A stretch of DNA of 64,000 bases from a virus (Duplodnaviria; Caudoviricetes), in the IMG/VR virus record IMGVR_UViG_2643221950_000002, positions 1-64,000 of that record; one strand, given 5' to 3'. This document shows positions 2,492 to 63,347 of this stretch, one piece after another (position 1 is the stretch's first letter; each line of letters begins with the position of its first letter). The position numbers and the translations under genes were made by a program. Below the pieces are notes generated by a model, which searched no databases, was not told the origin of the DNA, and saw only the letters and a list, made by a program, of their open reading frames with translations.

Positions 2492-3378
2492 ATGTAATTT
2501 CTCCTTTCATTGTATAAAGTGCTGATTTATGTAGTAAATGTGCATACTTATTTCTGGTTAAAAGACCGATTTTATTTAAATTTCTTCAGTTGTATAACTG
2601 TGTCATACATAATAACTAAATATACAAAACCGATTAAAGGCACAAAAATGACTGCCCAGCTAGTTTTATCACGCCCCCATCCATTTTTTCTTGCCCATCT
2701 AACTAAACAAAACTTAACTAGAGTGGTTAATATGTAATAAATTATCGTAAAGTGTATCACTGGAACAATCCTCCCCAAATTACTCCAGCAGATGTTGCTA
2801 CAATAATCATTGAAATAAACTTAGCTATTCCAATCCATACCACCAACTTCATATTGCCTTCAGAATCCCAATCACCTAGCACAACTAGACCAAATGCAAT
2901 TAACAAAACCCAAGCTGTTACAATCATTAAATCACCTCAAAATAAATAGATTCTATCGTCATTTTTAATACAGTTCAAATATTCAATTAACTCCTCAAAA
3001 GGGATAAGCATATCCTTTTTCACATCATCTACAGAGGCTTTTTCAAAATAAGATATTGTACCCATGTCCTGCAATTCTCCTACTTTAAGAGCCTTACCGT
3101 TGATTAAATAATAAGCCACTGTTCCAAGAAACTCGTCATTGCTAAAATGCTCAATTAGTCTGTTAGATTCTGAAGCGTAGTGATGCATAGCTCCATGTAA
3201 GGAATGAAAACTTTCAAAGTCTACATCACTTTCTGTGCAAGCTCCTTCATCAATGACAATTTTTAGAATGTCATTTGTGAATGATTCTCCTTGCTTTAAC
3301 AGAAAGTTGATCTTATTTTGACTCCTAGTTCTCAAATCATTTATCCATTCTTCAGCCCGTCTTAATTGCTCAATTTTC

Positions 3379-3723
3379 CTAAGCTTCTTCCTCAGTCTCT
3401 TTTTCATCATGTGACTCCTTTGTTTTAAATTGGCACAGAAACTTTTTGAGTTTCTTAGATGGATAGTCACACAGAGCATAATCGCCGACTAGTTTCGTGA
3501 AAATATCCTCCTGATGGGTATCAATCATTTTTGTAAGATCATGCTCAGGACTACAAGGACAATCCTCTTTGTTACAATAACGAAAATCATTAACAAATCT
3601 TGTTGTATGTACGATTAACTCAAGGAAAACAATTCTTAGTTTATCTTTGTCCTCTCCTTGATACCCGCACATAAAGTCATTTTGATAAATTTGAATTAAT
3701 GCTTCTAAGATTTTTCTGTCCAT
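3379..3723 (-). CDS. hypothetical protein
   Basis: 114-aa ORF with AAAGGA RBS. Confidence 0.6.
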   Translation of the reverse strand: MDRKILEALIQIYQNDFMCGYQGEDKDKLRIVFLELIVHTTRFVNDFRYCNKEDCPCSPEHDLTKMIDTHQEDIFTKLVGDYALCDYPSKKLKKFLCQFKTKESHDEKETEEEA

Positions 3724-3963
3724 TAGATATCCTTTCTTTATTATATTTGTTATTTATATTTTATTAACATCTTTCTTATGGAGTCATTTCAATTCGATAA
3801 CAGTCATTACCCAACGGTGTAACCTTAACAGTCTGCCCCTTGTCTAAACTTTGCTTTGTAAATGTAATCACTTGATTAAAACCTCTAACTTCTGTGTACA
3901 CAAGCCACATCTCCTTTCAATAAAATCAACGTTTTAAACTAAAGGGGCAATAGCCCCACAGTT

Positions 3964-4461
3964 TTAATTTGAGTCGTAAACAATTTTATATTTCATATCC
4001 GCTGCCCAACTTGTGTCAATGTCTTCTAGGTCTGTGATATAAATGATTTTTTCAACAGCTCCTATTTCATTTAACTCTTGGAATATTGCCTTTCTCATTG
4101 CTTCGTTTTCTACGTGACCCTTTATTGGATAAATTAAGGCAATATCAATCCCCTCGGCATAAACATCTCTACATTTCATTCTAATAGTGTCTAAAACAAA
4201 CACATTTTCATCACAACAAAACCTCTGTCCAATCACAAAGTTCCTGTTTTCCAAACAACTAATGTTTGACCTTTTCAGAATATTTTTATCCATTGTTCTA
4301 AGCAGAACTTTGACATCTTTGAAGTTCTTTTGAATTAGATCGAAAACCATAGGGAATTTTTGGTGATAATGATTCCCTGTAAGAATTGCTTCACTTTCCT
4401 CAGATTCTAAAAACTCAAGAATTTTGTCTTCTGCTTGACCTCTTCCATTCATTAGTATCAA
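3964..4461 (-). CDS. hypothetical protein, possibly degenerate P-loop fold
   Basis: GGAGG RBS; AILTGNHYHQK in a Walker-A-like position; own hairpin GGGGC..GCCCC downstream. Confidence 0.6.
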   Translation of the reverse strand: MILMNGRGQAEDKILEFLESEESEAILTGNHYHQKFPMVFDLIQKNFKDVKVLLRTMDKNILKRSNISCLENRNFVIGQRFCCDENVFVLDTIRMKCRDVYAEGIDIALIYPIKGHVENEAMRKAIFQELNEIGAVEKIIYITDLEDIDTSWAADMKYKIVYDSN

Positions 4462-5276: not shown

Positions 5277-5319
5277 TATGTATCTCTCCTTTTTTAATAA
5301 AATTCAGATTTTATGTAGT

Positions 5320-5869: not shown

Positions 5870-6682
5870 CTACTTCGTGATACCTTCAATTATAACCTTT
5901 TTCCCTTTTTTATCTGGTGTATCTAAGTTGATGTTAAGTTCAGGTTCATCTGTACGTGTAATTAAAACTGTTTTCGTCCCTACAGCCACTCCTATAAATG
6001 TTGTATCGAAGATTGTTCGTTTGATAAAAGAATCAAATATATTTATTGAATATTCATCATTTGCTGGGTTGGTTGTTACACTGTAATCACCTTTGATTTC
6101 GTGTTTAATTATATCGGAATTAGCTAATTGTGAATCAGTGTAGATCTTTTTCTTACCCGACTTAACATCATTAATGTACTTTTCTTTATTCATCTCACCA
6201 TAACCAAATGCACTTAAATGCTCAGTTCTAGTTATTGTTTTTTGATTAACTGTTAATTTCAAACGTTCAGTTGTTTGACCCAATTGATCTAGTATAATTC
6301 CTAATTTGTATTTACCAACATATTTAAATCCTTCAGCTTTTTCAAATAAATTAATGATTTCTTCATCTGTGAGATTTATTAAATGCTCTATTGTAATATT
6401 ATTCTGTCGCTGGTCTGGAAAGTATCGTATTAATTTATCCCCCTTGATCACAATAATGGTTTGCACGATACTCGATCTTCCAGGGTTTGAACTAGTTCTT
6501 AACCATACTTTATGTTTGGACAGTATATCACTCATTAACACAGTCTTAACTTTTACTTCTCTTGGTTTAGACTTACTTTCTTCAGACTTCTCATCTGTGC
6601 TGCTTACAGAACCACATCCAGTTAAAACAATAACTATCAAAATGATGATTGACATAATAGCCTTTTTACTCTTAATATTCAT
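5870..6682 (-). CDS. lipoprotein
   Basis: basic N-terminus, hydrophobic stretch, LTGC lipobox; own terminator at about 5845-5870. Confidence 0.8.
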   Translation of the reverse strand: MNIKSKKAIMSIIILIVIVLTGCGSVSSTDEKSEESKSKPREVKVKTVLMSDILSKHKVWLRTSSNPGRSSIVQTIIVIKGDKLIRYFPDQRQNNITIEHLINLTDEEIINLFEKAEGFKYVGKYKLGIILDQLGQTTERLKLTVNQKTITRTEHLSAFGYGEMNKEKYINDVKSGKKKIYTDSQLANSDIIKHEIKGDYSVTTNPANDEYSINIFDSFIKRTIFDTTFIGVAVGTKTVLITRTDEPELNINLDTPDKKGKKVIIEGITK

Positions 6683-6789
6683 TTCTAACCTCCATATAAT
6701 TTAACCCTCTAAAGTGAAATGTTACCAAGAGCATTATAGACTTTATTACTATAGTTCTCAATGTTTATTTTTCATATCTTCTCAAAAAG

Positions 6790-7599
6790 CTAAATAGCTA
6801 CATCTCCTTTGATTAAAGGGTGATGAACATAATCAATAACTTTAAAGTCTTCTAGGCTATAATCAAAGATCGATTCAGGCTTACGTTTAATATTAAGTTT
6901 TGGTGCTTGATATGGAGATCTGGTTAGTTGTTCTTTAACTTGATTTAAATGATTGTGATAAATATGAGCTACACCAACTGTATGTTTCATGACACCTGGC
7001 TTTAGTTCACATTGCTGAGCAATCATCGTCAGTAGCGTTGCATATGAAGCAATATTGACTGGTACACCTAGAAACATGTCTCCTGAACGTTGATAGTGAT
7101 ACATATGAAGATACTCACCATCCACGTAAAACTGAACAACAGTACTGTGACAACATGGTAATGCAGTATCTTTCCATTGCATCTCTGGGGCGTTCCATCC
7201 TGTAAATAAAATACGTCTGCTTGTTGGATTGTTTTTAATTTGGTCAATCACATACTTAATCTGATTAAAAATATTGCCTCTGCCGTCCTCCCATCTAGTC
7301 CATTGTTTGCCGTAGATATTTGGCAGCTGACCAGCTTCATTCGCCCATTCTTTCCAAAACTTGATTCCATACTTTTCTTCTAATTCTGTATTGGATGTTG
7401 AGCCACTTAAAAACCATAGCAACTCTCCAAAGACTCCTCTAGTGAACATCTTCTTAGTTGTAACCAAAGGAAACCCTTCAGACATATTAAACTCCATTGT
7501 CTCTCCGAATAGGCTTCTCATTCCTGTTTCTGTTCTATCTCCTGTATCATGACCATATGTATAGATTTTTTGTAATAATTTCAAATATTCTTTTTCCAA
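6790..7599 (-). CDS. thyA: thymidylate synthase
   Basis: DRTETG, FPLVTTKK, ELLWFLSG, ALPCCH, QRSGDMFLGVP.N, HIYHNH; TTG start with AAGGAG RBS. Confidence 0.95.
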   Translation of the reverse strand: MEKEYLKLLQKIYTYGHDTGDRTETGMRSLFGETMEFNMSEGFPLVTTKKMFTRGVFGELLWFLSGSTSNTELEEKYGIKFWKEWANEAGQLPNIYGKQWTRWEDGRGNIFNQIKYVIDQIKNNPTSRRILFTGWNAPEMQWKDTALPCCHSTVVQFYVDGEYLHMYHYQRSGDMFLGVPVNIASYATLLTMIAQQCELKPGVMKHTVGVAHIYHNHLNQVKEQLTRSPYQAPKLNIKRKPESIFDYSLEDFKVIDYVHHPLIKGDVAI

Positions 7600-7655
7600 T
7601 TTATCTCTCCTTAAGTTATAATTATGCTTATGAAATTTGAAGGGATGAAAATAAA

Positions 7656-8968: not shown

Positions 8969-9130
8969 TGAATAAAGTTTGTAAATATTGAAAGGTCGCA
9001 TATCCAAGGAAACTGGTTTGCGACCTTATGTCCCTTTTAAATCACTTTAAAAGTCTTCTTTTATCAAATATTTCCTAAAAAATGATATAATAAAGTTGTT
9101 ACAAATATTTAGAAAAGGTGGTAATTATTT

Positions 9131-10448: not shown

Positions 10449-10749
10449 TAGCTATAATTAACTGCTTGGATAATCATCGTGTCGTTCCAAACTCTTACAC
10501 AAAATACTTTTAAATCTCTTTCGGTTTCGGGTATCTCACTTGAAAGATAATCTTTAACTGTCCCATCAAAATAATGAATATCGAATACACCATTTTCAAT
10601 TCTGACTTTAGTGCCTGTTGCAACATTACTTAGAAGATCCCTTACTCTCATATTATATATATTCATTTTTCTCTCCTTTCCTATTGCCATAAAATTACCA
10701 TTTCATACAGATCGAATGCAGCTTTTTTGACCCCAATTAGATTCTTTTA

Positions 10750-15893: not shown

Positions 15894-15932
15894 TATATTT
15901 CCCCCAATTTTTATTTATATGAAACTGTGATT

Positions 15933-49807: not shown

Positions 49808-49938
49808 GTTTCTTGTTTTAATTATACATCTTAGCTCTAATATTAGCTACAATATTTTTTTCTTTTTTTATTTCACATTGATTGGTATGATATGTAATAG
49901 AGCTTGTACATTTTAACAACAAAATTGGAGGTTGTCCG

Positions 49939-50157
49939 ATGTTAAATGTAGAGATCGGGCAATGTCATATTCCTAAACTGCTAAAGGAAAAAAACTGGAC
50001 ACAGGCTGATTTGGCAAGAGCCACTGGCCTGACACCGCAAACCATCTTCCAAATAATCAATCAACCTGTAGACATCCGTATTAAAACAGCAGCTAAGATC
50101 GCTATGGCATTAGGCTGCAGGATTGACGATTTGTTCGAGTTTAGGATAAGACATTGA
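49939..50157 (+). CDS. yopS: XRE HTH regulator (YopS-like)
   Basis: WTQADLARATGLTPQTI, ALGCRIDDLF; synteny. Confidence 0.8.
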   Translation: MLNVEIGQCHIPKLLKEKNWTQADLARATGLTPQTIFQIINQPVDIRIKTAAKIAMALGCRIDDLFEFRIRH

Positions 50158-50311
50158 TTAACTGAGACAATGGTCTCAGTGCACCTCCATTATCAGCGAA
50201 TTCACTGATAAGACTATACTACTATAAGCATAACAGGTTGTATACACAATATTTTGTCTTTTTTTGTCGAATAGGGAAATTATTTAGAATTTTTCATAAA
50301 AAGAAGACAAA

Positions 50312-51301
50312 TCATATAGATTTGCCTTCTTCTTTAAGTTCATCTGCGTAATATTTTCTTATGGTTTCCTCATTCATGAATTCTCGTCGGTCTGAGATAA
50401 TTTTTTGATTTAAATCATTTGCCTGAACTTTTCTATCTTCATATATTTCATTAAGAGCTTTTCTGTCCAACTCTCCCCCTTTTAATATTACCTTATAACC
50501 CTCATATAGAAGGCCTGACTTAACTATACCTATAGGTCTTAAAAATGAAAAACCAAAAATTTCTTTAAGGTTTCTAAAAGTAGAACTAACTACAGTTCTC
50601 GAAGCTTGTCCTTGCCCAATTGCATTAGTCTGTTTTGTTTTTATTACATATTCATTATCAACTAAACTTAATGATGGCTTTCTTAGCCCTGGTTTCCCAT
50701 TCAATGGTCTATATTCTGTTTCAAGGTTTGCTTCAAGACAGTCTTGCAAAGTTGCTTTGTCTACTTGTATTGTTCTTTCTCCAAATTTCGAATCATGCAC
50801 AGTAAGCATATTGTTATTATTTAATGCTTTTTCTATGTCACTTCTTTTAAGACTAGTCATTTCACTTGCCTCGTAACCTAATATGCCCTCAAAAAGCAAT
50901 CTAAATAATGCCCTATCTTGAGCATTTATTAACTCTGCACACATTTTTTCTAATTCATTTTTAGTTATATATAATTTTAAAGATGAATCTATACATAACA
51001 ATAGATCATTGGTTTTTATCAACCTAGCTAAATTATTACTACCCTTAGTAACACCATTTGCAATTGACCAATCTATATAGGTTATCATGGTGTATAAGAA
51101 TGTTTCCAAAGATGCAAGAGAAGTTGAGTACATTGCTCTCAGCACATTCAAAATTTCATCTGTTGTAAAATCAAATAAATCTTTATCCCTTATTTCTTCT
51201 TCTTTTTTTGAATGATTAAATAAAAGAGAGGCTTGCTTTTGTAGACTGTCACTACTCAATGTATCTAAATAAGTTTTCTTAAACTCCTCGTTATACCACA
51301 A
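50312..51301 (-). CDS. yopR: master repressor, recombinase-fold (YopR/SroF/MrpR-like)
   Basis: MWYNEE.K, NAQD...RLLFEG, IVKSG; last gene of the operon after aimP. Confidence 0.82.
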   Translation of the reverse strand: MWYNEEFKKTYLDTLSSDSLQKQASLLFNHSKKEEEIRDKDLFDFTTDEILNVLRAMYSTSLASLETFLYTMITYIDWSIANGVTKGSNNLARLIKTNDLLLCIDSSLKLYITKNELEKMCAELINAQDRALFRLLFEGILGYEASEMTSLKRSDIEKALNNNNMLTVHDSKFGERTIQVDKATLQDCLEANLETEYRPLNGKPGLRKPSLSLVDNEYVIKTKQTNAIGQGQASRTVVSSTFRNLKEIFGFSFLRPIGIVKSGLLYEGYKVILKGGELDRKALNEIYEDRKVQANDLNQKIISDRREFMNEETIRKYYADELKEEGKSI

Positions 51302-51303
51302 AG

Positions 51304-52692
51304 CTATACACCTTCTACTTCATTCAATTTGTATTGGAAATATTTAATAACATGGTTTTTACTATGAGTTACTTCATTCTTTTTATTTAAGATTTTGTGT
51401 TCTTTTAACTCTGGATTATTTCTAACAAAGCTAAGTTTCATTTTTTTAATTATTTGTTGCGCCATTTTTGCGCTAATACCTGATGTGTACATAAAATATG
51501 CAATTTCCATGAACCCAACCAAAATATTTTTATTTATTACGATAGTTTTTTTGGCTTGCTCAAATTTGTCTCCTAGAAATTCTTCATAGTACAGCTCAGT
51601 TAATTCATCAAAGAATTCAACCAAAAAGACACCAATTTTCCTTACAGCTATTTGATCTTTCAGCAACCTAGGGAATTTTGTTGCCTCCATTGCACTTGCT
51701 ACATCATTTAAGGAATATAGATAATCTGATTGAGTTGCAATCACATCATGATCTAAACTTATTCTTTGACCAATTACACTGTTGTCTCGAATATGAGTAA
51801 CAACTTTGTTCACTGGATTTTCTTCGTTCATTTCTTTTAGTTTCGATAGTCTAACTGGTGTCATAGTGTTATGCTGACCAAATAACTGCCTTGCAACTTT
51901 TTGAGTTACGTTGTAAAAGTCCACTTTCATGAATTTATCATCAAAGCTGCCAGACCTTACCGCTTTAGAAATACCAACAATACGGTGATAACCATCAATT
52001 ACATCAACAAGTGTATCTTTCATCACCGTTAAGCTTCTCTCATTTGTATCATAAGATATCTCAATACCCTCAGATGATGAACCAAATCTTGCATTAAATA
52101 TTAATGTTGAGCTTATTAATGTACCATCAATTGCTTTTTGAGAAATCTGTTCTACCGCTTCTTGATTAAGCTCAGGAATAGGTATTTCTCCACCCAAGAA
52201 CTCAAAATTTTTAGTCTCGCTAGTTCTTTGAGTTCTTGGGTTGTATTGAAGCAAATGGTTTTCATACATTTTTGCTATTTCGCTTCTTTTAAGTAAGAAT
52301 GTGTAGTTGTTGTCATCTACTTTAGTAACATCCTTAAATGTTATAGGAAAAATCAACTCATTGTCATTATTCTGTGAGAAACCTTCCCAAGTTGTTTCAA
52401 TTTCTTGAATTATTCTTTCGGGGAAATAATTTGCTGGATTAATCTTTTCATCTTTAGTCACTTCATACATACCTGAAGCTAGAAGGTATTTTTCTTCTTT
52501 TCGAAGTGCTTCCTGTCTCCCAAATCTTATTATTAGATTCATTGTTTCCCCAGGTGAAACACCTTTATGAGAAAGAATGTTTTGAAGTCTTTCCCTAAAA
52601 TTTTTATCATGTTTATTTTTTTGCAATAACACTTCTATAGTTTCGTTTAGAAGCGCATCTTTTTCATCATCAAAAATCACTAAGTTATTCAT
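51304..52692 (-). CDS. yopQ: ParB/DndB-like protein (YopQ/SroE-like)
   Basis: YNPRTQR, VIDGYHR; synteny. Confidence 0.8.
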   Translation of the reverse strand: MNNLVIFDDEKDALLNETIEVLLQKNKHDKNFRERLQNILSHKGVSPGETMNLIIRFGRQEALRKEEKYLLASGMYEVTKDEKINPANYFPERIIQEIETTWEGFSQNNDNELIFPITFKDVTKVDDNNYTFLLKRSEIAKMYENHLLQYNPRTQRTSETKNFEFLGGEIPIPELNQEAVEQISQKAIDGTLISSTLIFNARFGSSSEGIEISYDTNERSLTVMKDTLVDVIDGYHRIVGISKAVRSGSFDDKFMKVDFYNVTQKVARQLFGQHNTMTPVRLSKLKEMNEENPVNKVVTHIRDNSVIGQRISLDHDVIATQSDYLYSLNDVASAMEATKFPRLLKDQIAVRKIGVFLVEFFDELTELYYEEFLGDKFEQAKKTIVINKNILVGFMEIAYFMYTSGISAKMAQQIIKKMKLSFVRNNPELKEHKILNKKNEVTHSKNHVIKYFQYKLNEVEGV

Positions 52693-52778
52693 ACAAATAC
52701 ACACCTCTTCTAAAACAAAAATAACAAACATATTATATTAAATCAATTTTTAGTCAAAAAATTAATCTAAATGTAAAC

Positions 52779-53861
52779 TTACCTCACAAATTCTAGGAAT
52801 TTTTGCACAGTTCCCCTATCTGCTTTACGAAAAAAATTGACAAAATCCTCTTTTGTTGCACTTTCAATCAATGAAAAATCTACTTCTCTATCCATCAATA
52901 TACCTGCGGAATTTTCTATATTGTCATTTTTAGTTAAATATCTCATTGGGGTCTTAGGATCTTTGTGATTTCCCTGAGCCATAGCAACCCTTATATCATT
53001 GCCAGACTCTTCATACGCTATATCAATCCCTACGCCTTTTAAAGAGTGAGGTTTAAGGTTTCTTGAGGCTGATATACCTAATCTATCCAGAGCTCTATTG
53101 AAGGATTCTCGAAAGGATCTTGATGTTAAACCGCTAAACACTAAATCATTATCCTTACTGTTTTGTTTTTTTAATTGTCTCAGCTCATTTAAAAAATTTT
53201 CATGAAGGCCTGTAGAAACTACATAAGCCCCTTTATTCAAGGATTCTACTTTATAAAATTCGCCGTCAACCTTTTTAATGTCCATCCATCTAACAGTAAG
53301 TGCATACTCAATTCTAAAAGAAGTACGAATTAAAAATTTGGTGAGCAGCTTTTTTTTCAATCCATTCTCACGCTCTAGCAACATGTTATCCGCAATTCTT
53401 TCTGCTTCAGTTTGAGTTGTTTTACCGTAACTCTTAGATATTTCTTTTAGTTTCTTTGTTGATCCAAATTGACTTAAATCAATTAAAGAAGAATAAGTAC
53501 TCACCGTCTTAAGAAACTTGTATAAGCCTTTAACTGATATCACTTTACGGTTGATTGTTGAATTGGCTAAACCTTCTTCTTTCAGATGTTTCCTAAAGTT
53601 TATTAAGTCAATTGAGGTGATTTCAATATCTTCGGGAGTTAGAAACTCTATTCCAATATTGGGTTTAAGAAAGCCAAAGAATTGTTTAATATCACCATAA
53701 TAATTAACTGCTGTATTTGTCTCAAACAATTTATGTCTCCGCTTTGTTTTAGAAAAAACATCAATATTTCCAACTGATCCCTCATCATCAATCTTTTTTA
53801 GATAAGTCATGATATCGTTATATACAGTGTATTCCTTAAGTGGAACTGGTTTAGTCTTCAT
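52779..53861 (-). CDS. yopP: tyrosine recombinase-like protein (YopP/SroD-like)
   Basis: STINR, TSFRI, NKG, PHSLK, GNH...MRY. Confidence 0.85.
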   Translation of the reverse strand: MKTKPVPLKEYTVYNDIMTYLKKIDDEGSVGNIDVFSKTKRRHKLFETNTAVNYYGDIKQFFGFLKPNIGIEFLTPEDIEITSIDLINFRKHLKEEGLANSTINRKVISVKGLYKFLKTVSTYSSLIDLSQFGSTKKLKEISKSYGKTTQTEAERIADNMLLERENGLKKKLLTKFLIRTSFRIEYALTVRWMDIKKVDGEFYKVESLNKGAYVVSTGLHENFLNELRQLKKQNSKDNDLVFSGLTSRSFRESFNRALDRLGISASRNLKPHSLKGVGIDIAYEESGNDIRVAMAQGNHKDPKTPMRYLTKNDNIENSAGILMDREVDFSLIESATKEDFVNFFRKADRGTVQKFLEFVR

Positions 53862-53874
53862 TTTTCTCCCTCCT

Positions 53875-54063
53875 TCACATTAATTCTTCAATTGTTGAAT
53901 TAAGAACAATCGCTATTTTTGCCATTTCAATTAACCTAGCCTCTTCAGGATTAGATATAATTTGTTCTAGTCTTTTCACTGAAATACCTGATTCAGCAGC
54001 TACACTATCTATAGTTTTGTTCGATTGTTCTATAATATTTAGTAAGTTATTAGGCACTGGCAC
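53875..54063 (-). CDS. yopO: XRE HTH protein (YopO/SroC-like)
   Basis: VAAESGISVKRL HTH; synteny. Confidence 0.75.
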   Translation of the reverse strand: MPVPNNLLNIIEQSNKTIDSVAAESGISVKRLEQIISNPEEARLIEMAKIAIVLNSTIEELM

Positions 54064-54115
54064 ATCTCCTTCAAATGCTTATGTATCTTAGATGCCCTGG
54101 CCATTGGTGTTAATT

Positions 54116-54424
54116 TTATGTAGTGATAAAATATTCAAATTCATACTCAACGGATTTGCGAAGTTCTTTTATGAATTCCATTCTCTTACGGTAGGCTGCG
54201 AGAAGATCTCCAGTGTAAGTGTTTGTCAATACGGTTTGATTAAAAGAAAACTCATCTATTTGTTTTAAATACTCAAATACAGCTTGTTTAACCTTATATA
54301 GATCAACTGGTGAATTAATTGATAAACTTAGGCTGCGTAAATATACAAGTTCTTCTTTTAAGCTGTTAATTATTTCGTATTGATACTCAATGTCCGCACA
54401 GCTTTTTTCTGGTGATGCAATCAC
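54116..54424 (-). CDS. YopN/SroB-position protein
   Basis: AGGAGG RBS; synteny only. Confidence 0.6.
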   Translation of the reverse strand: MIASPEKSCADIEYQYEIINSLKEELVYLRSLSLSINSPVDLYKVKQAVFEYLKQIDEFSFNQTVLTNTYTGDLLAAYRKRMEFIKELRKSVEYEFEYFITT

Positions 54425-54436
54425 TGGCCTTACCTC

Positions 54437-54622
54437 CTAACTATTCAATAATTTCAAATATCCTGAAATCATCGATCTTCTAATTTGTTCTTTTTTGATT
54501 TCTTTATCTATGTTATTTTTGTTTTCTTGGTGATTAAACCATTCTCCACCGAATTTATCTATCTTACGAGCATAAACAGTTTTATTGAAATTTATAACAT
54601 TGTCTTTTCTAGCAGCTAACAT
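54437..54622 (-). CDS. YopM/SroA-like small protein
   Basis: NVINF...ARK...GG.WF; first gene after aimP; promoter TTTACA-17-TAAACT. Confidence 0.65.
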   Translation of the reverse strand: MLAARKDNVINFNKTVYARKIDKFGGEWFNHQENKNNIDKEIKKEQIRRSMISGYLKLLNS

Positions 54623-54844
54623 AATTCTCCTCCTAAATTACATATTTCCGTATGTCTTATTTATAGTTTAATGGATAAAAACTTATATGTAAAGCTTTTT
54701 TCACGACAAATAGCACATTTTCAATGTGCTTTTGTAAGATCATTATTCAATTTCGGAAAAATTGGCATATTGTCGTAAAAATACAAAATGACGCAAACCC
54801 CTAAAGGGTTATACGTCATATTATGTACAACAATTATTCATTAG

Positions 54845-54873
54845 ATTATATATTGTCATTCTTAAAATTTCAA
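54845..54873 (-). promoter_or_regulatory. sigmaA promoter at the aimX position
   Basis: TTGAAA-17-TATAAT immediately after the aimP terminator. Confidence 0.7.
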
Positions 54874-54898
54874 GAAAAAGGGGATATTTCTATCCCTT
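54874..54898 (-). terminator. aimP terminator
   Basis: GGGATA-GAAA-TATCCC then CTTTTT. Confidence 0.8.
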
Positions 54899-54913
54899 GA
54901 CTACAAACGATTA

Positions 54914-55039
54914 CTAAGCTCCTCTAGAAGCAGATGATGTTGACACTTTTTCAGCATCCATAGCAATTGATTGCTGTGTACCAGAGAATACGCCTGCTAC
55001 TGCTGCAACTAAAACTAAAGCCATAACTAATTTCTTCAT
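54914..55039 (-). CDS. aimP: arbitrium pro-peptide AimP; mature peptide SASRGA
   Basis: MKKLVMALVLVAAVAGVFSGTQQSIAMDAEKVSTSSASRGA*: signal peptide plus C-terminal RGA hexapeptide; AAAGGGGG RBS; directly after aimR. Confidence 0.95.
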   Translation of the reverse strand: MKKLVMALVLVAAVAGVFSGTQQSIAMDAEKVSTSSASRGA

Positions 55040-55067
55040 ATATCTCACCCCCTTTCAAGCTTAAAAC

Positions 55068-56225
55068 TCAAATAGCTAAAAGTTCTAAAATTTCATTTTC
55101 TACGCCCATATTCTTTAATTTAATTAAAGGCAGTTTAACAAAATATTTATCATCTGATTTCTTGAAATGTTTAACTGATTTCAAGAAGCACCCTTTGTCT
55201 TTATAGAATATACCTTTAACATAGTAAAGGAACCCTAAATCATTATCATGCATAGTAGTTGAGTCTAATTTATTAAACACATCCATCATTTTATCTGCCT
55301 GATCATTAAGCATAAAGTGATGTGCAAGTTCTATAAAATCAGAATCATTTTTCGGTTCCTGTTCGAGGTATTTATTTTCTTTTACTCCCCAAATGTTTTC
55401 TAAGAATGCCAAAGCTGATGTAAGTTTATATTTATGGAAGCTATTTTTTGCGAATTTCAAACCGTTGATATAATATGTTTTTGCTTTCTTATAATCATCA
55501 AACACATAAGAATTACCGCAGGTAAGATGAGCAAACACTTGAAATCGATTCACCTTAACATCTTCAGTTATAATTTGATCACAGTAGTCTCTGAGAGGCT
55601 TTAAATTGTTGTCATTTAAAAACACGTTGGCCATAAGCAGCAAATACCTTGAACTAAAAGAGTCTTTAACATAACCCTTTTTTAAATTAGAAAGATCAAT
55701 ATATGCTGATGTACTCTTCATTAGACCAAACTCACCTGAGTTTAGGTATTCATACAATGTCATCATCCTTGCAAACACAAACATTTCTTCACTCTTGATT
55801 TTTATAGTACCAGTTTCTTTGATAGCAGAAGTTAAATCAATTTCACCTTTTGTGAGCATTCTATGTATGCGATATACATTCCCCCACTCTTTGCTTAATG
55901 CGTTGCTGGCGTTGCATAATTTATCAACAAGTTCATCTGTTTCTTCCCCAAGTTGATTAGCATCTAAATATTCTACAGCTTGTCTAGCAGCTGACTTGTT
56001 AGGGTCGAGTGTTGTGATATAGGTGCTAATTATTTCAATTTCTCTTTCTTGATCAACTTCTCTAACTAAATTTATAAGATTGCTCAAGTCATCCATCTCT
56101 TTGTTAGAGCTATTTAAAAATTTGTAAAGGCCAGTTCTATCCGAATAGCCCGCTATCTTAGCTAGTTTCATAGCCAAAGAAGAATCATCTTCACATTTAT
56201 TTTTTATGTATGTTTTAAGATTCAT
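55068..56225 (-). CDS. aimR: arbitrium receptor AimR (HTH plus TPR)
   Basis: N-terminal LAKIAGYSDRTGLYKFL, ARQAVEY, KEWG.VY, C-terminal SVKHFKKSDDKY. Confidence 0.95.
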   Translation of the reverse strand: MNLKTYIKNKCEDDSSLAMKLAKIAGYSDRTGLYKFLNSSNKEMDDLSNLINLVREVDQEREIEIISTYITTLDPNKSAARQAVEYLDANQLGEETDELVDKLCNASNALSKEWGNVYRIHRMLTKGEIDLTSAIKETGTIKIKSEEMFVFARMMTLYEYLNSGEFGLMKSTSAYIDLSNLKKGYVKDSFSSRYLLLMANVFLNDNNLKPLRDYCDQIITEDVKVNRFQVFAHLTCGNSYVFDDYKKAKTYYINGLKFAKNSFHKYKLTSALAFLENIWGVKENKYLEQEPKNDSDFIELAHHFMLNDQADKMMDVFNKLDSTTMHDNDLGFLYYVKGIFYKDKGCFLKSVKHFKKSDDKYFVKLPLIKLKNMGVENEILELLAI

Positions 56226-56246
56226 ATGACCCCACTCCCTACAATA

Positions 56247-56275
56247 AATTTACTATAATTTCAATTCATTGTCAA
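56247..56275 (-). promoter_or_regulatory. aimR promoter
   Basis: TTGACA-17-TAAATT; SPBRE-like TTTGTTATTTG just upstream at about 56283. Confidence 0.7.
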
Positions 56276-56376
56276 CTAAATATTTGTTATTTGTTGTTTA
56301 TTATAAGGAGTTTAATTTTGTTTGATCATATACTATAATAAACACTTGAATACTGTATCTAAGGAGAAATTAAATC

Positions 56377-56541
56377 ATGTTGAAAGAAATTGATCTTGAT
56401 AAGATTTACGACATACGAGAATATCCTGATAAACATAGTGGCCGCTGCGATAATTGCGACACAGCACAATTCAAGTCTACAATTTCCAAAGGAGAATTTA
56501 TTCGTCAATGTGCCAAATGTGGAATGAAAAAGAGGGTTTAA
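56377..56541 (+). CDS. 54-aa zinc-ribbon microprotein divergent from aimR
   Basis: AAGGAG RBS; CDNC and CAKC pairs. Confidence 0.7.
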   Translation: MLKEIDLDKIYDIREYPDKHSGRCDNCDTAQFKSTISKGEFIRQCAKCGMKKRV

Positions 56542-56699
56542 TCCCTCCTCCACTCTTATCCTCCTGGACGAATATCAGCCATTAACTCACCTCCCCCTAT
56601 TAGCCTCCTACTTTAATTGCTTCAATAATCATTTTCAACCACCTTCTAAATGAAATACTTCTTTTATTACAAATCCAACTTATCAAATTAGATTAAGCA

Positions 56700-57329
56700 T
56701 TACTCTTTTACATTCTCTCCTGACCGCTCATCAAGACTATCATAATATGCATCTTTAACCATTGCTTCAACATCTGGCTCATCAAATAAGTCATCATTAT
56801 GCAACTCAAACCTTGCTTCACCGACCATATCTGCCAAGTTAGGAATATGTTTTGAAAAATATTCAATTGATAGCTCATAACAATTTATTAATTGGATGTA
56901 TACTTTTACTGCTTCTTCCATACTCAAATTAATTTCATAATGCATAATTTCATTTCTCTTTTTGTTTAGATATGTCATTGCCTCTTTTAATTTTGGGGGC
57001 ACTTCTATATCGCAAAGAAGTTCAAGTCTCCTAATCGCTTCAGAAAAACCAACAGTTTGTATATTGGGGGAGACTTCAAAAATGCTATTTTTCTTTTGTT
57101 TAATCATTTCTTCTTTTGCTTTCATATATGAAGTAAGGTCTTTGAAGACTAGATATTCGTTCTTACTTTTTAATAAATATTTAAAAAGCAATTCAGCAGC
57201 ATGATTTATGGATAGTATTGCATCTTTAATTCTATGATCGTGTCCCTCAGTCAATTCCATCATTACCTGAATTGAACTATGCGTTGCGTTAAGGGAATCT
57301 ACAGCATTATCTAATAATGTAAATTTCAT
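56700..57329 (-). CDS. HEPN-like protein
   Basis: helical; AILSINHAAELLFK; RNEIMH (RxxxxH). Confidence 0.7.
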   Translation of the reverse strand: MKFTLLDNAVDSLNATHSSIQVMMELTEGHDHRIKDAILSINHAAELLFKYLLKSKNEYLVFKDLTSYMKAKEEMIKQKKNSIFEVSPNIQTVGFSEAIRRLELLCDIEVPPKLKEAMTYLNKKRNEIMHYEINLSMEEAVKVYIQLINCYELSIEYFSKHIPNLADMVGEARFELHNDDLFDEPDVEAMVKDAYYDSLDERSGENVKE

Positions 57330-57359
57330 TTGATCTCGCCTTTCATTAGAAGAATGATT

Positions 57360-57602
57360 TCATTCGAAAAACTTTTGTCTCTCTTTTAATCTTCTATTCT
57401 CTTCCTCTAATTCTGCAATGTACTCTTCATACTGTTGATTTTGCGCTTGTCTTCCACCAGTTATTTTATTGAAGATAGCATACATGTATACAAACATTAC
57501 TGGCACGCCCATAATTGGGCCGAATAGGATGAATACCAGCCAAACTGCAAATCCCCCGCCAAAAATAATCGTATTTAAATTCATCACTACACCCCTTTTC
57601 AA
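57360..57602 (-). CDS. small membrane protein with coiled-coil tail
   Basis: hydrophobic N-half, charged C-terminus. Confidence 0.6.
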   Translation of the reverse strand: MKRGVVMNLNTIIFGGGFAVWLVFILFGPIMGVPVMFVYMYAIFNKITGGRQAQNQQYEEYIAELEEENRRLKERQKFFE

Positions 57603-58605
57603 TAGGATTATTTTATCATACGGTTAATCAATACTCACCATTTTTTCATTTTATTTCCCTTTGCATATGATCTGAATTTCACATTAAGTACTAAATTATG
57701 ATGTCTTTTATTAACTGCTATTTCAATGAGGGAAGGAATCCCACTCTTAGCTCATGTTAAAAACATCATTTTATTTGGCCTGTAATCAATCATAATGCAC
57801 GTTACAGGATGCAACACGCTTTTAGAATACAGTACCTTCTTTTATGTACAGTCTCAATAATTTAATTTGTTGTTTAAGTATTCCTCTACGCTGCCATCAA
57901 AACCTATATACCCTACTTCAAGTTCATCTAAAATTTGTTCCTGATCAGCCCAACATTTAAACATATTGTGCATGTTTGGTTTTGAAAGTTCTTTCTTAAT
58001 TAATTCTCGCATATCATCCACCCCTTACGTATATGTAATTTATCCAGAATAAATAAATGCACAAAGCAGCATAATGGCCAATAGACTAAATACAGCAATA
58101 CTGATCAAATCATCCCGCCGTTTTAGTAACCTCTCTTGGATCGTTTTCATTCTTTTCCACTTACAACATCAGTTTCAATTTCATCATATTGATTAAACAA
58201 GAACATATACTCAAGATCAAATGCATCTAAAAATTCTTGTTTTGCGATATGGCCTGTTATAACTGCGCCTTCTAGGGATTGTTTATCAACTTTTGCAAAT
58301 ACACTCCTTGCCGCTCTTTCAGCTACGTCCTCTAAACTTTTTCTAATCTCTTCTTTCACTTCAAACATTTTTTTGTAATCCATAATTAACGCCCCTTTTA
58401 GTATATGTTATTTATTTGTTTAAAACTCATGTTTTATTTAATTTGTAATATACACTTCTCTTGTGTACTACGTACAAAGAAACCTAATTTAATTTTAATC
58501 TATTAACAATACACTTAACTTCTAAACTTCGAATACTTTAACGTATATGTAATTTTTGTGATTATTTAAAAGGAAGTCGTCATAAGACGACTCAGCCTTA
58601 TAGGT

Positions 58606-59271: not shown

Positions 59272-60377
59272 TTCTTATAAAGGATTAAATAAAAGAAACA
59301 TTTTATTTAACTTTCAATTTTCAATAATTCAATTGCTCGATCGTATGCAACAACTTGATTTAAATAGATATCAATACTATTATCCATCAGCCCGTCAGCC
59401 GAAAATAAATACTTGTCATCTTTCTTTAGCTTAAATTCAAGATTGTCCAATGTTCTTTTAATAATAATAATCTGTTCTTGCAATCTATTTTTAGCAATCT
59501 CTCTTTCTGCTTCAAGCATAACTAAGTTTTTATTTTCTTTTGTCATATTTTCCATTCTCCTTTCTGTAGAAAATCAACATTTTATATTAATTTTTGCGTG
59601 AGGATTGGGTAATTTATTAATATCAATCCATCGACCATTTCTTCCTTTCGGATCACTTATATGCGTTAGGTATACTTCTTTATCAGATGATTTAAGGACT
59701 ACATATGTAAAACTGTTAATCATCACACAGTGCCCTTTTTCGTATTTAAAATTATTTAAACACATTGGTTAAAGTGTTAGACTTAAATCTAATATTCTCT
59801 TTTTACGATCATTAAGCTTCTTTATTTCCTCATCTATTCTTTTAAACTTCGATTTCATAACCCTTTCAAAATCTCTTTTCTTGTCGTCTCCATCTAGAAG
59901 AATTATTTCACGATCACCCTTAGATGTATTGAAATTGTAAAGACCTCCAACATGTTGATTTTTCATCCATTTTTCATAATCAGATCGATCAACCTCTTCT
60001 TTCTCAATTCTTCCATCTTTATAAAGACTTATTTTTAACATCACTTCTCCTCTTTCCTGCATAAAATTAGAATTTTATTCGACTATTCCATATGCTTTGT
60101 ATATTTCTTCTTTCATACTATGCCCTTGCCGCTCTTCTTCTTCACCAATCTCTTTAAATGTCATTGTGAACTCATCAATAAGTCTAAAATTGATTTCACC
60201 GACTCCTTCCTCGTCAATTACATCATACATTTCATTTATTGAGTATTTTACCGTTCCTTTTAAACCATCAACATCTGCATCTAAAATTCTTTTAATTACT
60301 TGCTCCATAATTTTTACATCCCCTTTTTTAAAACGCTAGAATTTTTATCAACCGTTTCCGTTGTATCTTATAACTAT

Positions 60378-60406
60378 ATTATATATGTTATTTGTACTTT
60401 AATCAA
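60378..60406 (-). promoter_or_regulatory. sigmaA promoter with SPBRE-like element
   Basis: TTGATT-17-TATAAT, spacer AAAGTACAAATAACATA. Confidence 0.8.
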
Positions 60407-60430: not shown

Positions 60431-62038
60431 TTAATTTCCTAGCATTAAAACTTTTGATGTATCTAACATATAATAACCTTTGTTTTTCATTGTCTTGTTA
60501 TATTCTCTCTCACCTTCGAATTCATTGATAACCGCTCTTTCCTCTTCGTTCATTTCAGTAAACTCTGTATTACCGTATGATGGTGGCAACCACCCTTTTT
60601 TCTGACTTCCGAAAATATTGAACTTTTTTAAAATCTCATCATTTTTAAATTCAATATGACATGTCCCTTTTTTGTAAAACGTTAAATAAAAATACTTCAA
60701 ATCAATTTTTTTCGTTTCTCCATAGTGTTTAGACATTTTTAGAACTTCATCAATATTAACATCTTCAGTAAGGCCATTGTCTAGGTAGTTAAACACTTTT
60801 TCGATATCTTTGAGTTTATCCATAACAGTATAGTAAGTTGGATCATAATTACCATCCCAAGTACCATAACCATTTAGTGGAATTACAACTTTTTTGTTTA
60901 TTTTATAAGATTTGTTTGTTTTCCATCCGTTATATAAGTGAACATTTTTTGATGTTTTATCATAATAGTGTTTATGGCTGAACTCTTCAAACAAATTTAG
61001 AATGGTTTCTTCGACTCCTTGAATCATTTCTTTACTCATTTGTATTCTTAATGTGTATATGTTGAATAAAGAGAAATCATAATCCTTTAACTCTTCGACA
61101 TGCTGCAAATATTTTTGCTTTAGATTGCTTGTAAAAAGACTCATGAATTCAGCATTATTAAACAGTGTATTCCAATACTTTTGCCTTACACTTTTAATAA
61201 ATTCGTTTTCCATATCTTCTGTATAGTTATTTGCAGAAGAATCCAATTCTAATTTTAGTATCGGTTTAGAAGTTTCTTTAAAGCTATTTAAGATTAACGG
61301 TTTCATGCTATTGTATTCATTTATAAGTTTCAAGCCTGCTTTAAGCTCATAGTTAAATTGCTCAACAATTCCCCTTATGTAATCAGAATCAATTAATTGA
61401 GTTGATTTATAATCATTTTTAAGTATGTGGCTTTCATCCTTTTTCAATTCATTTAAAAGAACACTGTTATATTCACCGTTATCAATTTTTATATAAACTA
61501 AAGCTGTCTCTACACTTGTCTTTCTTTCAGAACTAACAAAGGCATCTTTTATAAATTCGACATCTGCATCAAGCTCGGTCAACTTTCTAACGAGATATTT
61601 CCTGTCATTAGAATAAGGGTTATTTAATGTTTCAGCGTTTAGTAAACAGACTATCTGACCCGTTCTATGTTGTGATTCAATTAAATTAATGGCCTTTAAT
61701 AAATGCTTTTCCCCATTGCTGAACGGCGGATTCATAAATATAAGATCATATTTCTTGTATGTATTAAAAGTTAGAAAATCATCTGAAATAACTCTGAAAT
61801 CTTTACCTTTTAACAAGTGGCGCAAGTTCTCATCATGCTCAATAGCATCGATGTCATACTTTGATTCTCTTCTATATATCTTGGTGTAATCAAATTGCTT
61901 ATGAATTGCTTCCACCAAATTGCCTGAACCCGCTGAAGGCTCTAAAACTGATTTAATATACTTCCAATCTACCTTTCTATTCATTTTGTTGATTAAACTT
62001 GCTGGAGTTGGGTAAAAATCTAGATTCTCTTTAAACAT
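60431..62038 (-). CDS. DUF4942-containing N6-adenine methyltransferase
   Basis: DFYPTP, LEPSAGSG, MNPPF, YKKGTCHI. Confidence 0.85.
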   Translation of the reverse strand: MFKENLDFYPTPASLINKMNRKVDWKYIKSVLEPSAGSGNLVEAIHKQFDYTKIYRRESKYDIDAIEHDENLRHLLKGKDFRVISDDFLTFNTYKKYDLIFMNPPFSNGEKHLLKAINLIESQHRTGQIVCLLNAETLNNPYSNDRKYLVRKLTELDADVEFIKDAFVSSERKTSVETALVYIKIDNGEYNSVLLNELKKDESHILKNDYKSTQLIDSDYIRGIVEQFNYELKAGLKLINEYNSMKPLILNSFKETSKPILKLELDSSANNYTEDMENEFIKSVRQKYWNTLFNNAEFMSLFTSNLKQKYLQHVEELKDYDFSLFNIYTLRIQMSKEMIQGVEETILNLFEEFSHKHYYDKTSKNVHLYNGWKTNKSYKINKKVVIPLNGYGTWDGNYDPTYYTVMDKLKDIEKVFNYLDNGLTEDVNIDEVLKMSKHYGETKKIDLKYFYLTFYKKGTCHIEFKNDEILKKFNIFGSQKKGWLPPSYGNTEFTEMNEEERAVINEFEGEREYNKTMKNKGYYMLDTSKVLMLGN

Positions 62039-62073
62039 ATTTTCTCCTTTTTTAAAGGCACCTTTACAGAACC

Positions 62074-62544
62074 TTATTTAATTTGATTTAAATGGGATAC
62101 CCCTTCTTCAATACTCATTCTTAAAACAATTCTCACCATCTCCTCCTGAAAACCCGTTTCATCTTTTTTAGATGAGAGATTAATAAGATTTTTCATGTCA
62201 TTTAAATTGAGGTTAGGCAAAATATCTTTGGTGAAGTGTTCTTTTGCTTTTTCGATATTTTCTTTTTCATTTTTTGCTTCTCTGATTGAGTTTAGACTTA
62301 CAACATTTGTTTTTTGCACTTCTTCTTGAACATCTTCGATTTCTTGTTTCGTTAATTCTGATTCGATTGGTTGGGGTGTAGGATCAGTAATAAAGGCTTC
62401 GACTAGTTCAGCTTCACCATTTTTGATTAGTTCCAATGCTTCTGATTTTTTTATTGGAAAACTTCTCATTTGAGCCCAGCTGTATCTGTAGTATCTGTTA
62501 CCTTTTTGTTTAATTAACATCATCTTTACCCTCTCCAGTCTCAC
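62074..62544 (-). CDS. hypothetical protein
   Basis: GGAGAGG RBS, about 150 aa. Confidence 0.6.
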   Translation of the reverse strand: MRLERVKMMLIKQKGNRYYRYSWAQMRSFPIKKSEALELIKNGEAELVEAFITDPTPQPIESELTKQEIEDVQEEVQKTNVVSLNSIREAKNEKENIEKAKEHFTKDILPNLNLNDMKNLINLSSKKDETGFQEEMVRIVLRMSIEEGVSHLNQIK

Positions 62545-63347
62545 TTTTTATTTTTGCAACCCCTGGCCATTATTGACCAGGACGCTCACAGCCTAATGCC
62601 TGTTTATACTCACTGTGACGAGTTTAGCGTATCAACATGCTGGATATATCCTTTAGCAATCCATGAGCTGTGAGGAGACCACTCAGCGTCACCCTCTCTC
62701 ATATAAGCTGTATGTACAGGTGTTCCAGCTTTTCTATCAGGATGCTTTTCTTCTGTTAATTTAGTCCATACCCAGTTGTTCGGCTTTACTTTTTTCATAT
62801 CCAATCTCTCCCTTTAAAATATTCATTTTATTGAATTCTATAACTTCTTAATAGATGTAATATAAATCACCATTGTTGTCACTAATTGCGAATCGCTTCA
62901 ATTGAGTATAACTACTTTTTGGAGTGCCTTTTTTTGTATATTTTGATTTAAAAAATTCAGGATGTTTCCCTATTTCTTGTTGTGCTTCTTTTAGTGTTGA
63001 AAATTCTCCGATTTTCACAAAGTTGTAAGTAGCGAAATATCTCATTAGTTCTTTACCTCCTCATATGATCCAATTTCATATTTTTTGTTTCCAAAACTCA
63101 CAAAAACTTGTCCATTTTCTAATTTCATTAATTTGCGAAGTGTGGTCATTCTTATACCGTTATTAATAGCAGCGAAATATAAACGTCTTCCTCCAGTTTC
63201 TTTTAATTTGAGTTTATCGTATTTATATCCTTCACAAACTCCACTATGATTCAAAAATGAGGTATGAATTGTTACATTTATCGCCATTATAATTCTCTCC
63301 ATTCTTTATTTGTTATTTGACTGAATTTTGTTCTTTTCTATATCCTT

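Follow-up and report, generated by a model that had tools for sequence, protein, structure and literature searches.

The viral record IMGVR_UViG_2643221950_000002, whose first 64 kb (of 120,137 bases) were analysed here and are called the window, belongs to a distant SPbeta-like Bacillus phage and carries at many of its gene junctions a short palindrome, TRAAA-N6-TTTYA. All sites share the arms of this palindrome, and almost every one has a 6-bp centre of its own, which other phages of the group retain at the corresponding place and in a matching order. The genes that lie between two sites differ from phage to phage, and breakpoints of homology are in excess at the junctions that carry a site. 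Judged from these sequence comparisons, the palindromes are probably position-specific joints for gene swapping between phages, each centre serving as the address of its site. As for the mechanism, our tentative proposal is that a Cre/Xer-like tyrosine recombinase of the phage uses them as heterospecific core sites and would exchange cassettes only between matching addresses; we give this proposal a substantial chance, somewhat short of even.

SPbeta is a model temperate phage whose accessory genes include anti-defence and toxin-antitoxin functions. If the sites are address-matched crossover points, they would explain the clean exchange of single genes under a fixed gene order, provide a concrete molecular device for the modular theory of phage evolution, suggest what two conserved tyrosine recombinases, to which we found no function assigned, are for, and offer a naturally occurring series of recombination sites that exclude one another. 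If they are protein-binding landmarks instead, it would still have to be explained why a spacer expected to be free is conserved at site after site. No description of the motif was found in the literature covered, the original 1999 SPbeta genome paper lying outside that coverage; a term look-up in two SPbeta papers did not find it, and the two features annotated as 'palindrome' in the SPbeta record are both unrelated to it.

Several sets of sequences were compared with the window. Megablast against the phage collection aligned the replication block (yorG-yorL) only, at about 71% identity, while BLASTP found SPbeta homologues for 58 of 177 open reading frames (ORFs), collinear but in inverted order; the nearest database homologues of two proteins were named from Bacillus pumilus, altitudinis and safensis. 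The minus strand carries 89 of the 105 ORFs kept in the window. Six distant relatives, namely SPbeta and five IMG/VR proviruses (G001-G005), were oriented by their DNA polymerase gene, and megablast aligns 1-9% of the window phage's DNA to them. Near relatives were L220 and L221, used for homology ends at 34000-56000, and L010 (9 kb). In addition, public contigs of the sequencing runs X2, X5 and X6 were placed on window 38000-57900, and a survey around the yoqJ-like gene covered 44 loci, with single-address statistics taken from 28 sequences.

A palindrome of fixed spacing at gene junctions

An exact search found all 25 copies listed in a first-pass annotation of the window, every coordinate and spacer being correct, and raised the number of exact matches to 29. 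In 100 dinucleotide-preserving shuffles the mean was 3.20 and the maximum 8 (0 of 100 reached 29), so the enrichment over chance that the annotation had estimated holds. The spacing is specific as well: when the spacer was scanned from k=0 to k=15, the 29 matches at k=6 stood against 0-7 at every other length. The whole 120-kb record has 40 matches, dispersed throughout and on both gene strands, with 39 distinct centres among them and with neighbours that differ.

The sites sit between genes. With ORFs of 60 amino acids or more masked, which covers 86% of the window, 19 of the 29 matches fall fully and 5 partly outside the mask. Read in gene orientation, the distance from the upstream stop codon to the site is -3 to 44 nt, and 7 of 21 junctions have a site whose first three bases double as that stop codon, an overlap noticed before. 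On the other side, a downstream gene could be recognised in 17 cases, and in 14 of these the site ends 10-26 nt ahead of the start codon, before the ribosome-binding site (RBS). One-gene units have the order site-RBS-gene-stop-site. The reported lack of junction copies in the replication block and the sro genes is also correct, the sole matches there being the in-ORF ones at 27197 and 51914. These two and a third match deep in an ORF (43858) are among the four that the annotation had not listed, and all three are probably chance matches, about 3 being expected; the fourth, 36735, is a genuine member since its centre is conserved in two near relatives.

Two finer points of the earlier description fared less evenly. 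The four one-mismatch copies at 20807, 44393, 57347 and 59569 exist, and their centres equal those of exact, same-orientation sites in relatives. Taken together, copies with one mismatch are no commoner than chance would give (46 at k=6 vs 41-73 at k=4, 5, 7 and 8), and only those four were kept. The proposed extension of the arms to an 11-6-11 layout finds weak support at a few outer positions, out to about 11 bp: among 64 unique-centre sites, position -6 is T in 40, +4 is A in 41, +5 is a purine in 56 and +6 is A in 51. These positions carry 0.3-0.75 bit each, and the remainder carries almost nothing. What is left is a pair of invariant, inverted arms around a 6-bp spacer, which is the layout of a tyrosine-recombinase core site of the lox/dif/FRT type.

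The motif extends well beyond the window phage. SPbeta has 36 matches at k=6 vs 0-10 at other spacings, and the five IMG/VR proviruses have 31-36 matches vs 4-8 for the pattern read backwards. Five more distant phages were chosen for encoding a homologue of YomM, one of the two recombinases considered below, and the motif is enriched in four of them (Geobacillus E3, 42/10; Mammaliicoccus phi127, 38/5; Bacillus phage Kirov, 28/4; Lactococcus P1048, 10/3); in the fifth, Staphylococcus SPbeta-like 2, enrichment is weak at 20 against 10. The B. subtilis phages SPO1, SPP1, phiNIT1, SP10 and phi105 have 0-1 matches each, and none of them is among the 40 recombinase matches listed. On these counts the motif is a trait of the lineage. 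As a side observation, 3 of the 20 centres of Staphylococcus phage SPbeta-like 2 equal window centres (CAGAGA, TCACAG and TCTGAA) where about 0.4 would be expected, in mixed orientations.

Centres as conserved addresses

The window phage has 11-13 identical centres in common with each of the six distant relatives when both are read in the same orientation; with the orientation reversed, as an internal control, the number is 0. Their order is kept, except for a two-address block (60062 and 59569) and the coding match 43858. Retention of each centre at its own place in the series, in phages that no longer align, is indirect evidence that partner sites need identical spacers. In the 12 site pairs common with SPbeta, the 16 bp agree throughout and the flanks are at random level, mostly 3-6 of 12 per column; as the pairs were picked by spacer identity, the flank result alone is unbiased. 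Best-match distances of centres to SPbeta were 0 for 13 sites and 1 mismatch for 8, compared with 0 and 10 in the opposite-orientation control, so that near-misses are not in excess. At one and the same address, the semi-degenerate R/Y positions of the arms vary among relatives and the centre is unchanged.

The two-address block is a case of its own. The addresses TTCTAA then TGTTGA (window 59569-60077) lie upstream of the arbitrium locus here but near the opposite end of the map, in the yot region, in the six relatives, and the block seems to have moved along with its addresses.

The survey around yoqJ gives the same picture at higher resolution. About 26 of the 44 loci show the series TGTAAG, GATGCA, (GTAAAA), (TTGAAG), AGACTG, yoqJ, GGATTA, TCGTGA, GATAGT, ..., CAGAGA, ACGATA, GTAATT, ACAACC, in which the distances between addresses vary several-fold. 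The site upstream of yoqJ is invariant over its 16 bp in 13 distinct sequences (mean per-site diversity 0.00); the 20 nt upstream of it reach a diversity of 0.58, and the stretch between it and the start codon 0.42. When the 40 nt on either side were classed for single addresses, each in 11-21 sequences, 5-12 different left contexts and 6-13 different right ones were counted; centre GATGCA (46952), for example, has 7 left and 13 right flank classes. A four-gamete test at single addresses gave 1 full configuration among 18 addresses, for which the sampling is too thin, and a search of the collection with one full 16-base address returned at least 119 stretches, mostly in unrelated contigs, and was not used.

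The sites are listed below without strand, and their centres are read on the minus strand, which is the gene strand.

2559-2574, centre TCGGTC: exact; same centre and orientation in SPbeta and G003; supplies the upstream stop codon
3921-3936, centre CGTTGA: exact, intergenic; centre in none of the six relatives
5298-5313, centre TCTGAA: exact; 6 nt past a stop and 21 nt ahead of a start; not in the six relatives
9048-9063, centre GAAGAC: exact; same centre, collinear, in G001-G005
10690-10705, centre TGGTAA: exact; in none of the six relatives
15920-15935, centre TCACAG: exact; in G001-G005; overlaps the upstream stop codon
17349-17364, centre GGATGA: exact; in SPbeta, G003 and G005
18350-18365, centre GTTTTA: exact; collinear in SPbeta, G001, G002, G004 and G005
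18903-18918, centre TTCAAG: exact; retained in L010
20649-20664, centre GATCAA: exact; in SPbeta, G001, G002, G005 and L010; upstream gene differs
20807-20822, centre TATCTC: one mismatch; exact same-orientation site in G003
33873-33888, centre CTGTCA: exact; between a terminator-like T run and an SPBRE-like box (see below); 9.2-9.9 kb downstream of yoqJ in L233, L243 and L246
36735-36750, centre CATTCG: exact; order kept in L220 and L221; L221 homology ends 1 nt from the edge
38576-38591, centre ACAACC: exact; kept in L220 and L221; breakpoints 1-6 nt from the edge
40113-40128, centre GTAATT: exact; in SPbeta and 13 of 28 sequences; X5 joins 40128 to 40817
40819-40834, centre CAGAGA: exact; in G001-G004 and 11 of 28 sequences
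42036-42051, centre GATAGT, between convergent genes: exact; in SPbeta, G002, G004 and G005; X6 joins 42054 to 42997
43004-43019, centre TCGTGA: exact; in G001, G003, G004 and G005; breakpoint 7 nt from the edge (X6, L220, L221)
44393-44408, centre GGATTA: one mismatch; exact site just downstream of yoqJ in 18 of 28 sequences; breakpoints 2-8 nt from its edges
45333-45348, centre AGACTG, just upstream of the yoqJ-like gene: exact; X6 replacement begins exactly at 45348
46952-46967, centre GATGCA: exact; in 18 of 28 sequences; X6 replacement stops exactly at 46952
48963-48978, centre TGTAAG: exact; in 16 of 28 sequences; about 371 extra letters in X6, 6 nt from the site (record positions)
56651-56666, centre GAAGTA: exact; X2 joins 56667 to 57752
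57347-57362, centre TCATTC: one mismatch; exact site in G001-G003; X6 homology ends at 57345
57758-57773, centre TGATGT: exact; a 23-nt island between two joints in X2
58421-58436, centre CATGAG: exact, intergenic
59290-59305, centre TGTTTC: exact; 1 nt past a stop codon
59569-59584, centre TGTTGA: one mismatch; exact in G001, G002, G004 and G005, next after TTCTAA as here
60062-60077, centre TTCTAA: exact; in all six relatives, near the other end of their maps
62815-62830, centre TGAATA: exact, intergenic
27197-27212, inside the RecJ-like gene, probably chance: deep in ORF; centre not in relatives
43858-43873, inside a 214-aa ORF, probably chance: deep in ORF; centre that of 18350, out of order
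51914-51929, inside the YopQ-like gene, probably chance: deep in ORF; centre not in relatives

Slots, breakpoints and gene replacement

A slot is defined here as a pair of consecutive addresses together with what lies between them. Among slots common to at least 2 of 8 genomes, 22 of 52 hold unrelated contents, and the slot TGTAAG-GATGCA (window 48963-46952) has six unrelated contents in seven genomes. The junctions themselves were examined in window 34000-56000, where 10 of the 42 gene junctions have a site. Homology with L220 or L221 breaks at 8 of the 10 site junctions and at 7 of the 32 others (Fisher p 0.0016), and 15 of 34 ends of high-scoring segment pairs with these two relatives fall within 14 nt of a site edge, a zone that holds 2.0% of positions. 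Junction-level tests were used in place of counts of megablast ends. When six non-independent relatives are pooled, co-directional junctions of the early arm have a breakpoint in 57 of 81 cases with a site and in 136 of 368 without, and the excess persists among gaps of at least 30 nt (52 of 70 vs 82 of 162). A map of k-mer block boundaries placed 174 of 3074 boundaries no more than 25 nt from a site; at 93-95% identity it broke into too many fragments, and the conservation of the sites is in part responsible for its sharp peak at the site edge.

Individual replacements and losses were traced in the contigs. In run X6, a stretch of 1603 nt running exactly from 45348 to 46952, the inner edges of two sites, has given way to 1278 other letters. 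Empty slots, with the genes missing and both sites retained, are found in X5 (40128|40817), X6 (42054|42997) and X2 (56667|57752); the shorter side of the X6 and X2 joints has 20-23 letters, under the 30 treated as reliable. The 223-aa gene between the 40113 and 40819 sites, absent in X5, is replaced in L220. Further contig ends lie at 38594, 40130, 48957 and 57774 and, at one-mismatch sites, at 44385, 44410 and 57345.

These results support the idea, raised by the first-pass annotation, that the sites mark places of cassette shuffling. Site-to-site segments are replaced or absent in relatives and site junctions are enriched for breakpoints. About half of the breakpoints fall elsewhere, with 15 of the 34 ends at sites and 19 away from them.

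Several observations weigh against a dedicated exchange function of the sites. The 19 window ends away from sites lie at other gene borders (e.g. 47439/48622 and 43539/44178) or farther, and since they amount to about half of the near-relative breakpoints, at site-free junctions, the sites are not needed for gene turnover. Among the six relatives, 136 of the 193 breakpoint-bearing early-arm junctions are without a site, and contig joints off sites occur at 39007, 39180/39320, 39325/39869, 39849, 43673, 44646 and 57853. One insertion in L010 abuts a site on a single side and the other has no site at either end. A base-exact edge is expected of any conserved island, so the junction-level excess, not the exactness, counts as evidence. 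Conservation of the centres is strong, not absolute: one sub-lineage has the single-base variants TCGTCA, CAGAAA and AGATTG for TCGTGA, CAGAGA and AGACTG, which means that centres evolve, but slowly. The arms offer 10 well-conserved bases, few for a Cre/Xer arm pair; both candidate enzymes carry, in the SPbeta-like group, a Lys at the second catalytic Arg position; and the co-occurrence of recombinase and motif is confounded by common descent. Lastly, laboratory hybrids of phi3Ts and SPbeta have their crossovers within shared blocks of 1.4-18 kb, and the study places 15 of 16 recombination sites at homology (10.1101/2020.05.06.055103). Crossovers in such long shared blocks fit ordinary homologous recombination, as expected, and are uninformative on site use.

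Some smaller observations belong beside these. L010 has extra small genes at 6471-7030 and 7138-7610, and one of about 470 nt lies exactly at the 5' edge of site 18903. The variant centres occur together in L224, L227, L229, L232, L233, L235, L236, L243 and L246, and may represent an address dialect that would isolate this lineage from exchange with the other lineage. Dragos et al. describe one non-homologous phi3Ts x SPbeta recombination site 'following yosA' (10.1101/2020.05.06.055103). The 3' end of yosA is some 90 nt away from a 16-bp palindrome of SPbeta (116415).

Candidate enzymes and rival explanations

In strand exchange by tyrosine recombinases such as Cre, FLP and lambda Int, the spacers of the two partners are identical and the enzyme is indifferent to the spacer sequence. 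We know of no other established mechanism that makes a free central spacer matter between two DNA sites. We suggest that the palindromes would act in this way on DNA and that the 30-40 or so of them in a phage genome form a fixed scaffold, every site having the common arms TRAAA / TTTYA (roughly 11-6-11 with weak outer positions) and a private 6-bp centre. As identical spacers are needed, the partner of a site would be its counterpart with the same address in a relative that is co-infecting or resident, never one of its neighbours. Two crossovers would then swap the segment between two addresses and leave gene order unscrambled and genes uncut. Common arms together with private, conserved and ordered centres would thus make a system for exchange between genomes that is barred within one genome. 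This reading accounts at once for the palindrome, its spacing, the conserved centres, their order, the two-site empty slots and the breakpoint excess, and we rate it as a reasonable prospect with the balance slightly against it.

Two genes of the phage encode candidates for the enzyme that would read the sites, the YomM and the YopP/SroD families, and one of them lies in the window.

52779-53861, minus strand: YopP/SroD-like tyrosine recombinase gene, candidate enzyme; Pfam Phage_integrase and an N-terminal SAM-like domain

The YopP/SroD-like protein matches Phage_integrase (PF00589) at E 9.7e-11 and shows, by eye, the residues R, K, H-x-x-K, H and Y. The YomM-like gene lies at record 89640-90695, outside the window, and its product is 86% identical to SPbeta YomM (84% by BLASTP), the figure for the DNA polymerase being 74%. 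A search for YomM homologues gave 671 at E 1e-5 or better, and the best 120 of the 671 have 61-99% identity and come from several Bacillales genera. Tyrosine recombinases have the cognate residue set R-K-H-R-H/W-Y. In an alignment with 25 homologues of 61-97% identity, R198, E201, K229, H299, H327 and Y337 of the YomM-like protein are invariant and K302 is kept in at least 90%; the Kirov and P1048 members have the canonical Arg at 302. The AlphaFold model of the YomM-like protein (pLDDT 78, pTM 0.52) matches XerA, Cre, the Tn1549 integrase, XerH and the lambda Int core over 290-340 columns, which points to a simple two-domain recombinase without an arm-binding domain. In 4 of the 5 distant phages the gene is directly upstream of the tape-measure gene, and in Geobacillus E3 its 300-nt flank shows hypothetical proteins only. 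An integrative role is not obvious for a recombinase fixed in the tail module of phages that are partly virulent. The large siphoviruses that have YopP-like proteins are largely those that have the YomM family, so co-occurrence cannot choose between the two. The motif, where it is placed, the conservation and order of the centres and the breakpoint excess are observed; that either protein would bind the palindromes and catalyse exchange there, and which of the two would do so, is what we infer. The geometry, which the first-pass annotation compared with Xer/dif core sites, fits a tyrosine-recombinase core site, and the phage has two such recombinase genes.

In its widest form, the proposal is of a natural genome-wide exchange scaffold in SPbeta-like and some distant large siphoviruses, with 30-40 addressed sites read by one YomM-family recombinase, so that any accessory cassette could be traded with a relative wherever addresses match and gene order would be preserved; we hold this wider claim with considerable doubt. 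One comparable system is engineered. In cassette exchange with heterospecific lox or FRT sites, a laboratory method, one recombinase acts on two unlike sites that flank a cassette. Common arms, matching spacers and ordered exchange without excision are found in both cases, and the engineered form uses two or three sites where the phage would have a natural array of 30-40 and a candidate enzyme only. In nature, the pdif/dif modules of Acinetobacter plasmids are comparable, with many Xer-type 11-6-11 copies in accessory regions flanking adaptive gene modules that turn up in more than one replicon (PMC6449649). Those pdif sites look like the host dif and presumably depend on host XerC/XerD (PMC6449649), whereas the sites here have arms of the phage lineage and ordered private centres on a phage replicon.

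The rival that we take most seriously, although it is somewhat improbable, is that the palindromes are landmarks for a dimeric DNA-binding protein, be it a helix-turn-helix (HTH) repressor, an insulator or a nucleoid-type protein, with a regulatory or architectural role like that of stoperators or the 434 operator, with gene turnover doing no more than respecting them. HTH dimers typically bind, as textbooks have it, a 5-6-5 palindrome whose half-sites are 11 bp apart; the sites lie at module borders, some of them between a terminator and a promoter with a box like SPBRE, the operator of the MrpR repressor (33873; SPbeta 76171 and 99498); and about half of the breakpoints avoid sites. A spacer that is not contacted should drift, yet the centres are kept in phages that cannot be aligned and are stabler than the R/Y positions of the arms. 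Matches to Sigma-70-like promoters are not enriched either (72 vs 88.4 expected), and a promoter role, tried separately, was rejected with no conserved -35 or -10 hexamers around the sites. Chromatin affinity precipitation sequencing (ChAP-seq) of MrpR in SPbeta has its reported peaks at ten SPBRE-bearing promoters and not at palindromes (PMC10516654). The stoperators of cluster A mycobacteriophages are likewise dozens of short intergenic sites spread over a genome; they differ in being near-identical, asymmetric, oriented with transcription and without a private spacer. Short homology offers another account, an unlikely one in our estimate, in which the 16-22 identical bases serve as linkers recombined by a Sak4-like annealase (with a RecJ-like nuclease) or by RecA, the arms serving another purpose. 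Genes for Sak4-like and RecJ-like proteins do lie within the replication block, and the need for whole-site identity would fit the conserved centres. Such exchange is known from the PeSLs (promoter-early stem-loops) of T4-type phages, which are likewise short conserved motifs between small non-essential genes in variable regions, with indels and replacements among close relatives ending at motifs; PMC2839356 describes them as promoter-plus-terminator units that recombine mutually by homology, mini-circles being possible. Unlike PeSLs, the palindromes have no promoter or terminator signature and 10 common bases, and their private centres should bar exchange between sites. Moreover, linkers leave the strict palindrome, the fixed 6-bp spacing and the arms common to all sites unaccounted for, 16 bp is very short for homologous exchange, and common arms predict ectopic exchange between unlike sites, yet order is kept.

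The integron-like system first proposed for these sites, in which cassettes are excised as circles and inserted via neighbouring sites with unmatched spacers tolerated, now appears very improbable. Integron arrays do resemble the window in having small, mostly promoterless genes separated by recombination-type palindromes, and the one-gene units and the presence of tyrosine recombinase genes speak for it. Integron attC sites are long imperfect palindromes recombined as folded single strands, whereas the sites here are 16-bp palindromes with perfect arms and a 5-bp stem. They are spread genome-wide over 120 kb on both gene strands with no attI/Pc-type platform, judged from this spread and from the places of the recombinase genes, in the sro operon and the tail module. 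Excision through neighbours would leave one hybrid site, but the centres of neighbours differ (39 distinct among 40) and empty slots appear to keep both sites. The Tn916-like tolerance of unmatched spacers invoked with it is the opposite of what the conserved centres suggest, which argue for matching. We think even less of an RNA signal, that is, a hairpin, processing site or translational operator in polycistronic early mRNA, which the usual place of the site just ahead of the RBS (14 of 17) might suggest. The stem would be five A-U pairs; by eye, 4 of 6 mixed-arm sites would form an A-C mismatch in sense RNA; the genes on the two sides of 42036 are convergent, and some other sites (33873; SPbeta 76171, 99498) precede promoters; and a site stays while the downstream gene changes. 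An RNA hairpin as such was rejected on those mismatching arm combinations and on sites that lie outside transcribed leaders. Equally far-fetched is a cut-and-rejoin system, in which a phage nuclease would cut the degenerate centre and a phage ligase would rejoin the address-specific overhangs in order. Palindromic arms with an unspecified spacer have the textbook layout of an interrupted-palindrome restriction site, conserved centres would be required, and a LigB-like ligase gene (41178-42014, 83% identical to that of SPbeta) is in the window. Geometry is the sole supporting observation, however, with no candidate nuclease identified, and cuts at 30-40 places in the genome would be hazardous for the phage.

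SPBRE itself was considered as the identity of the motif and rejected, the box common to the regions upstream of the ten SPbeta ChAP-seq target genes being a different sequence. Like the palindromes, it is a dispersed intergenic repeat of the same phages and is read by a protein with the tyrosine-recombinase fold; PMC10516654 and 10.1101/2025.11.27.690993 describe it as a longer box, 24-26 bp in length and not palindromic, to which a monomer binds. The window has six SPBRE-like boxes on the minus strand, with a consensus of about AAATACAAATAACATATATA, where 0.15 would be expected.

19280-19299, minus strand: SPBRE-like box, apart from the palindromes
22618-22637, minus strand: SPBRE-like box, likewise apart
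33821-33840, minus strand: SPBRE-like box, likewise apart
49159-49178, minus strand: SPBRE-like box, likewise apart
60380-60399, minus strand: SPBRE-like box, likewise apart
63350-63369, minus strand: SPBRE-like box, likewise apart

These boxes are probably operators of the MrpR/SroF-like repressor encoded at 50312-51301. The YopQ/SroE-like protein (51304-52731) matches the Pfam DndB family, associated with DNA sulfur modification, at E 1.4e-07, and is a second repressor according to a 2025 preprint.

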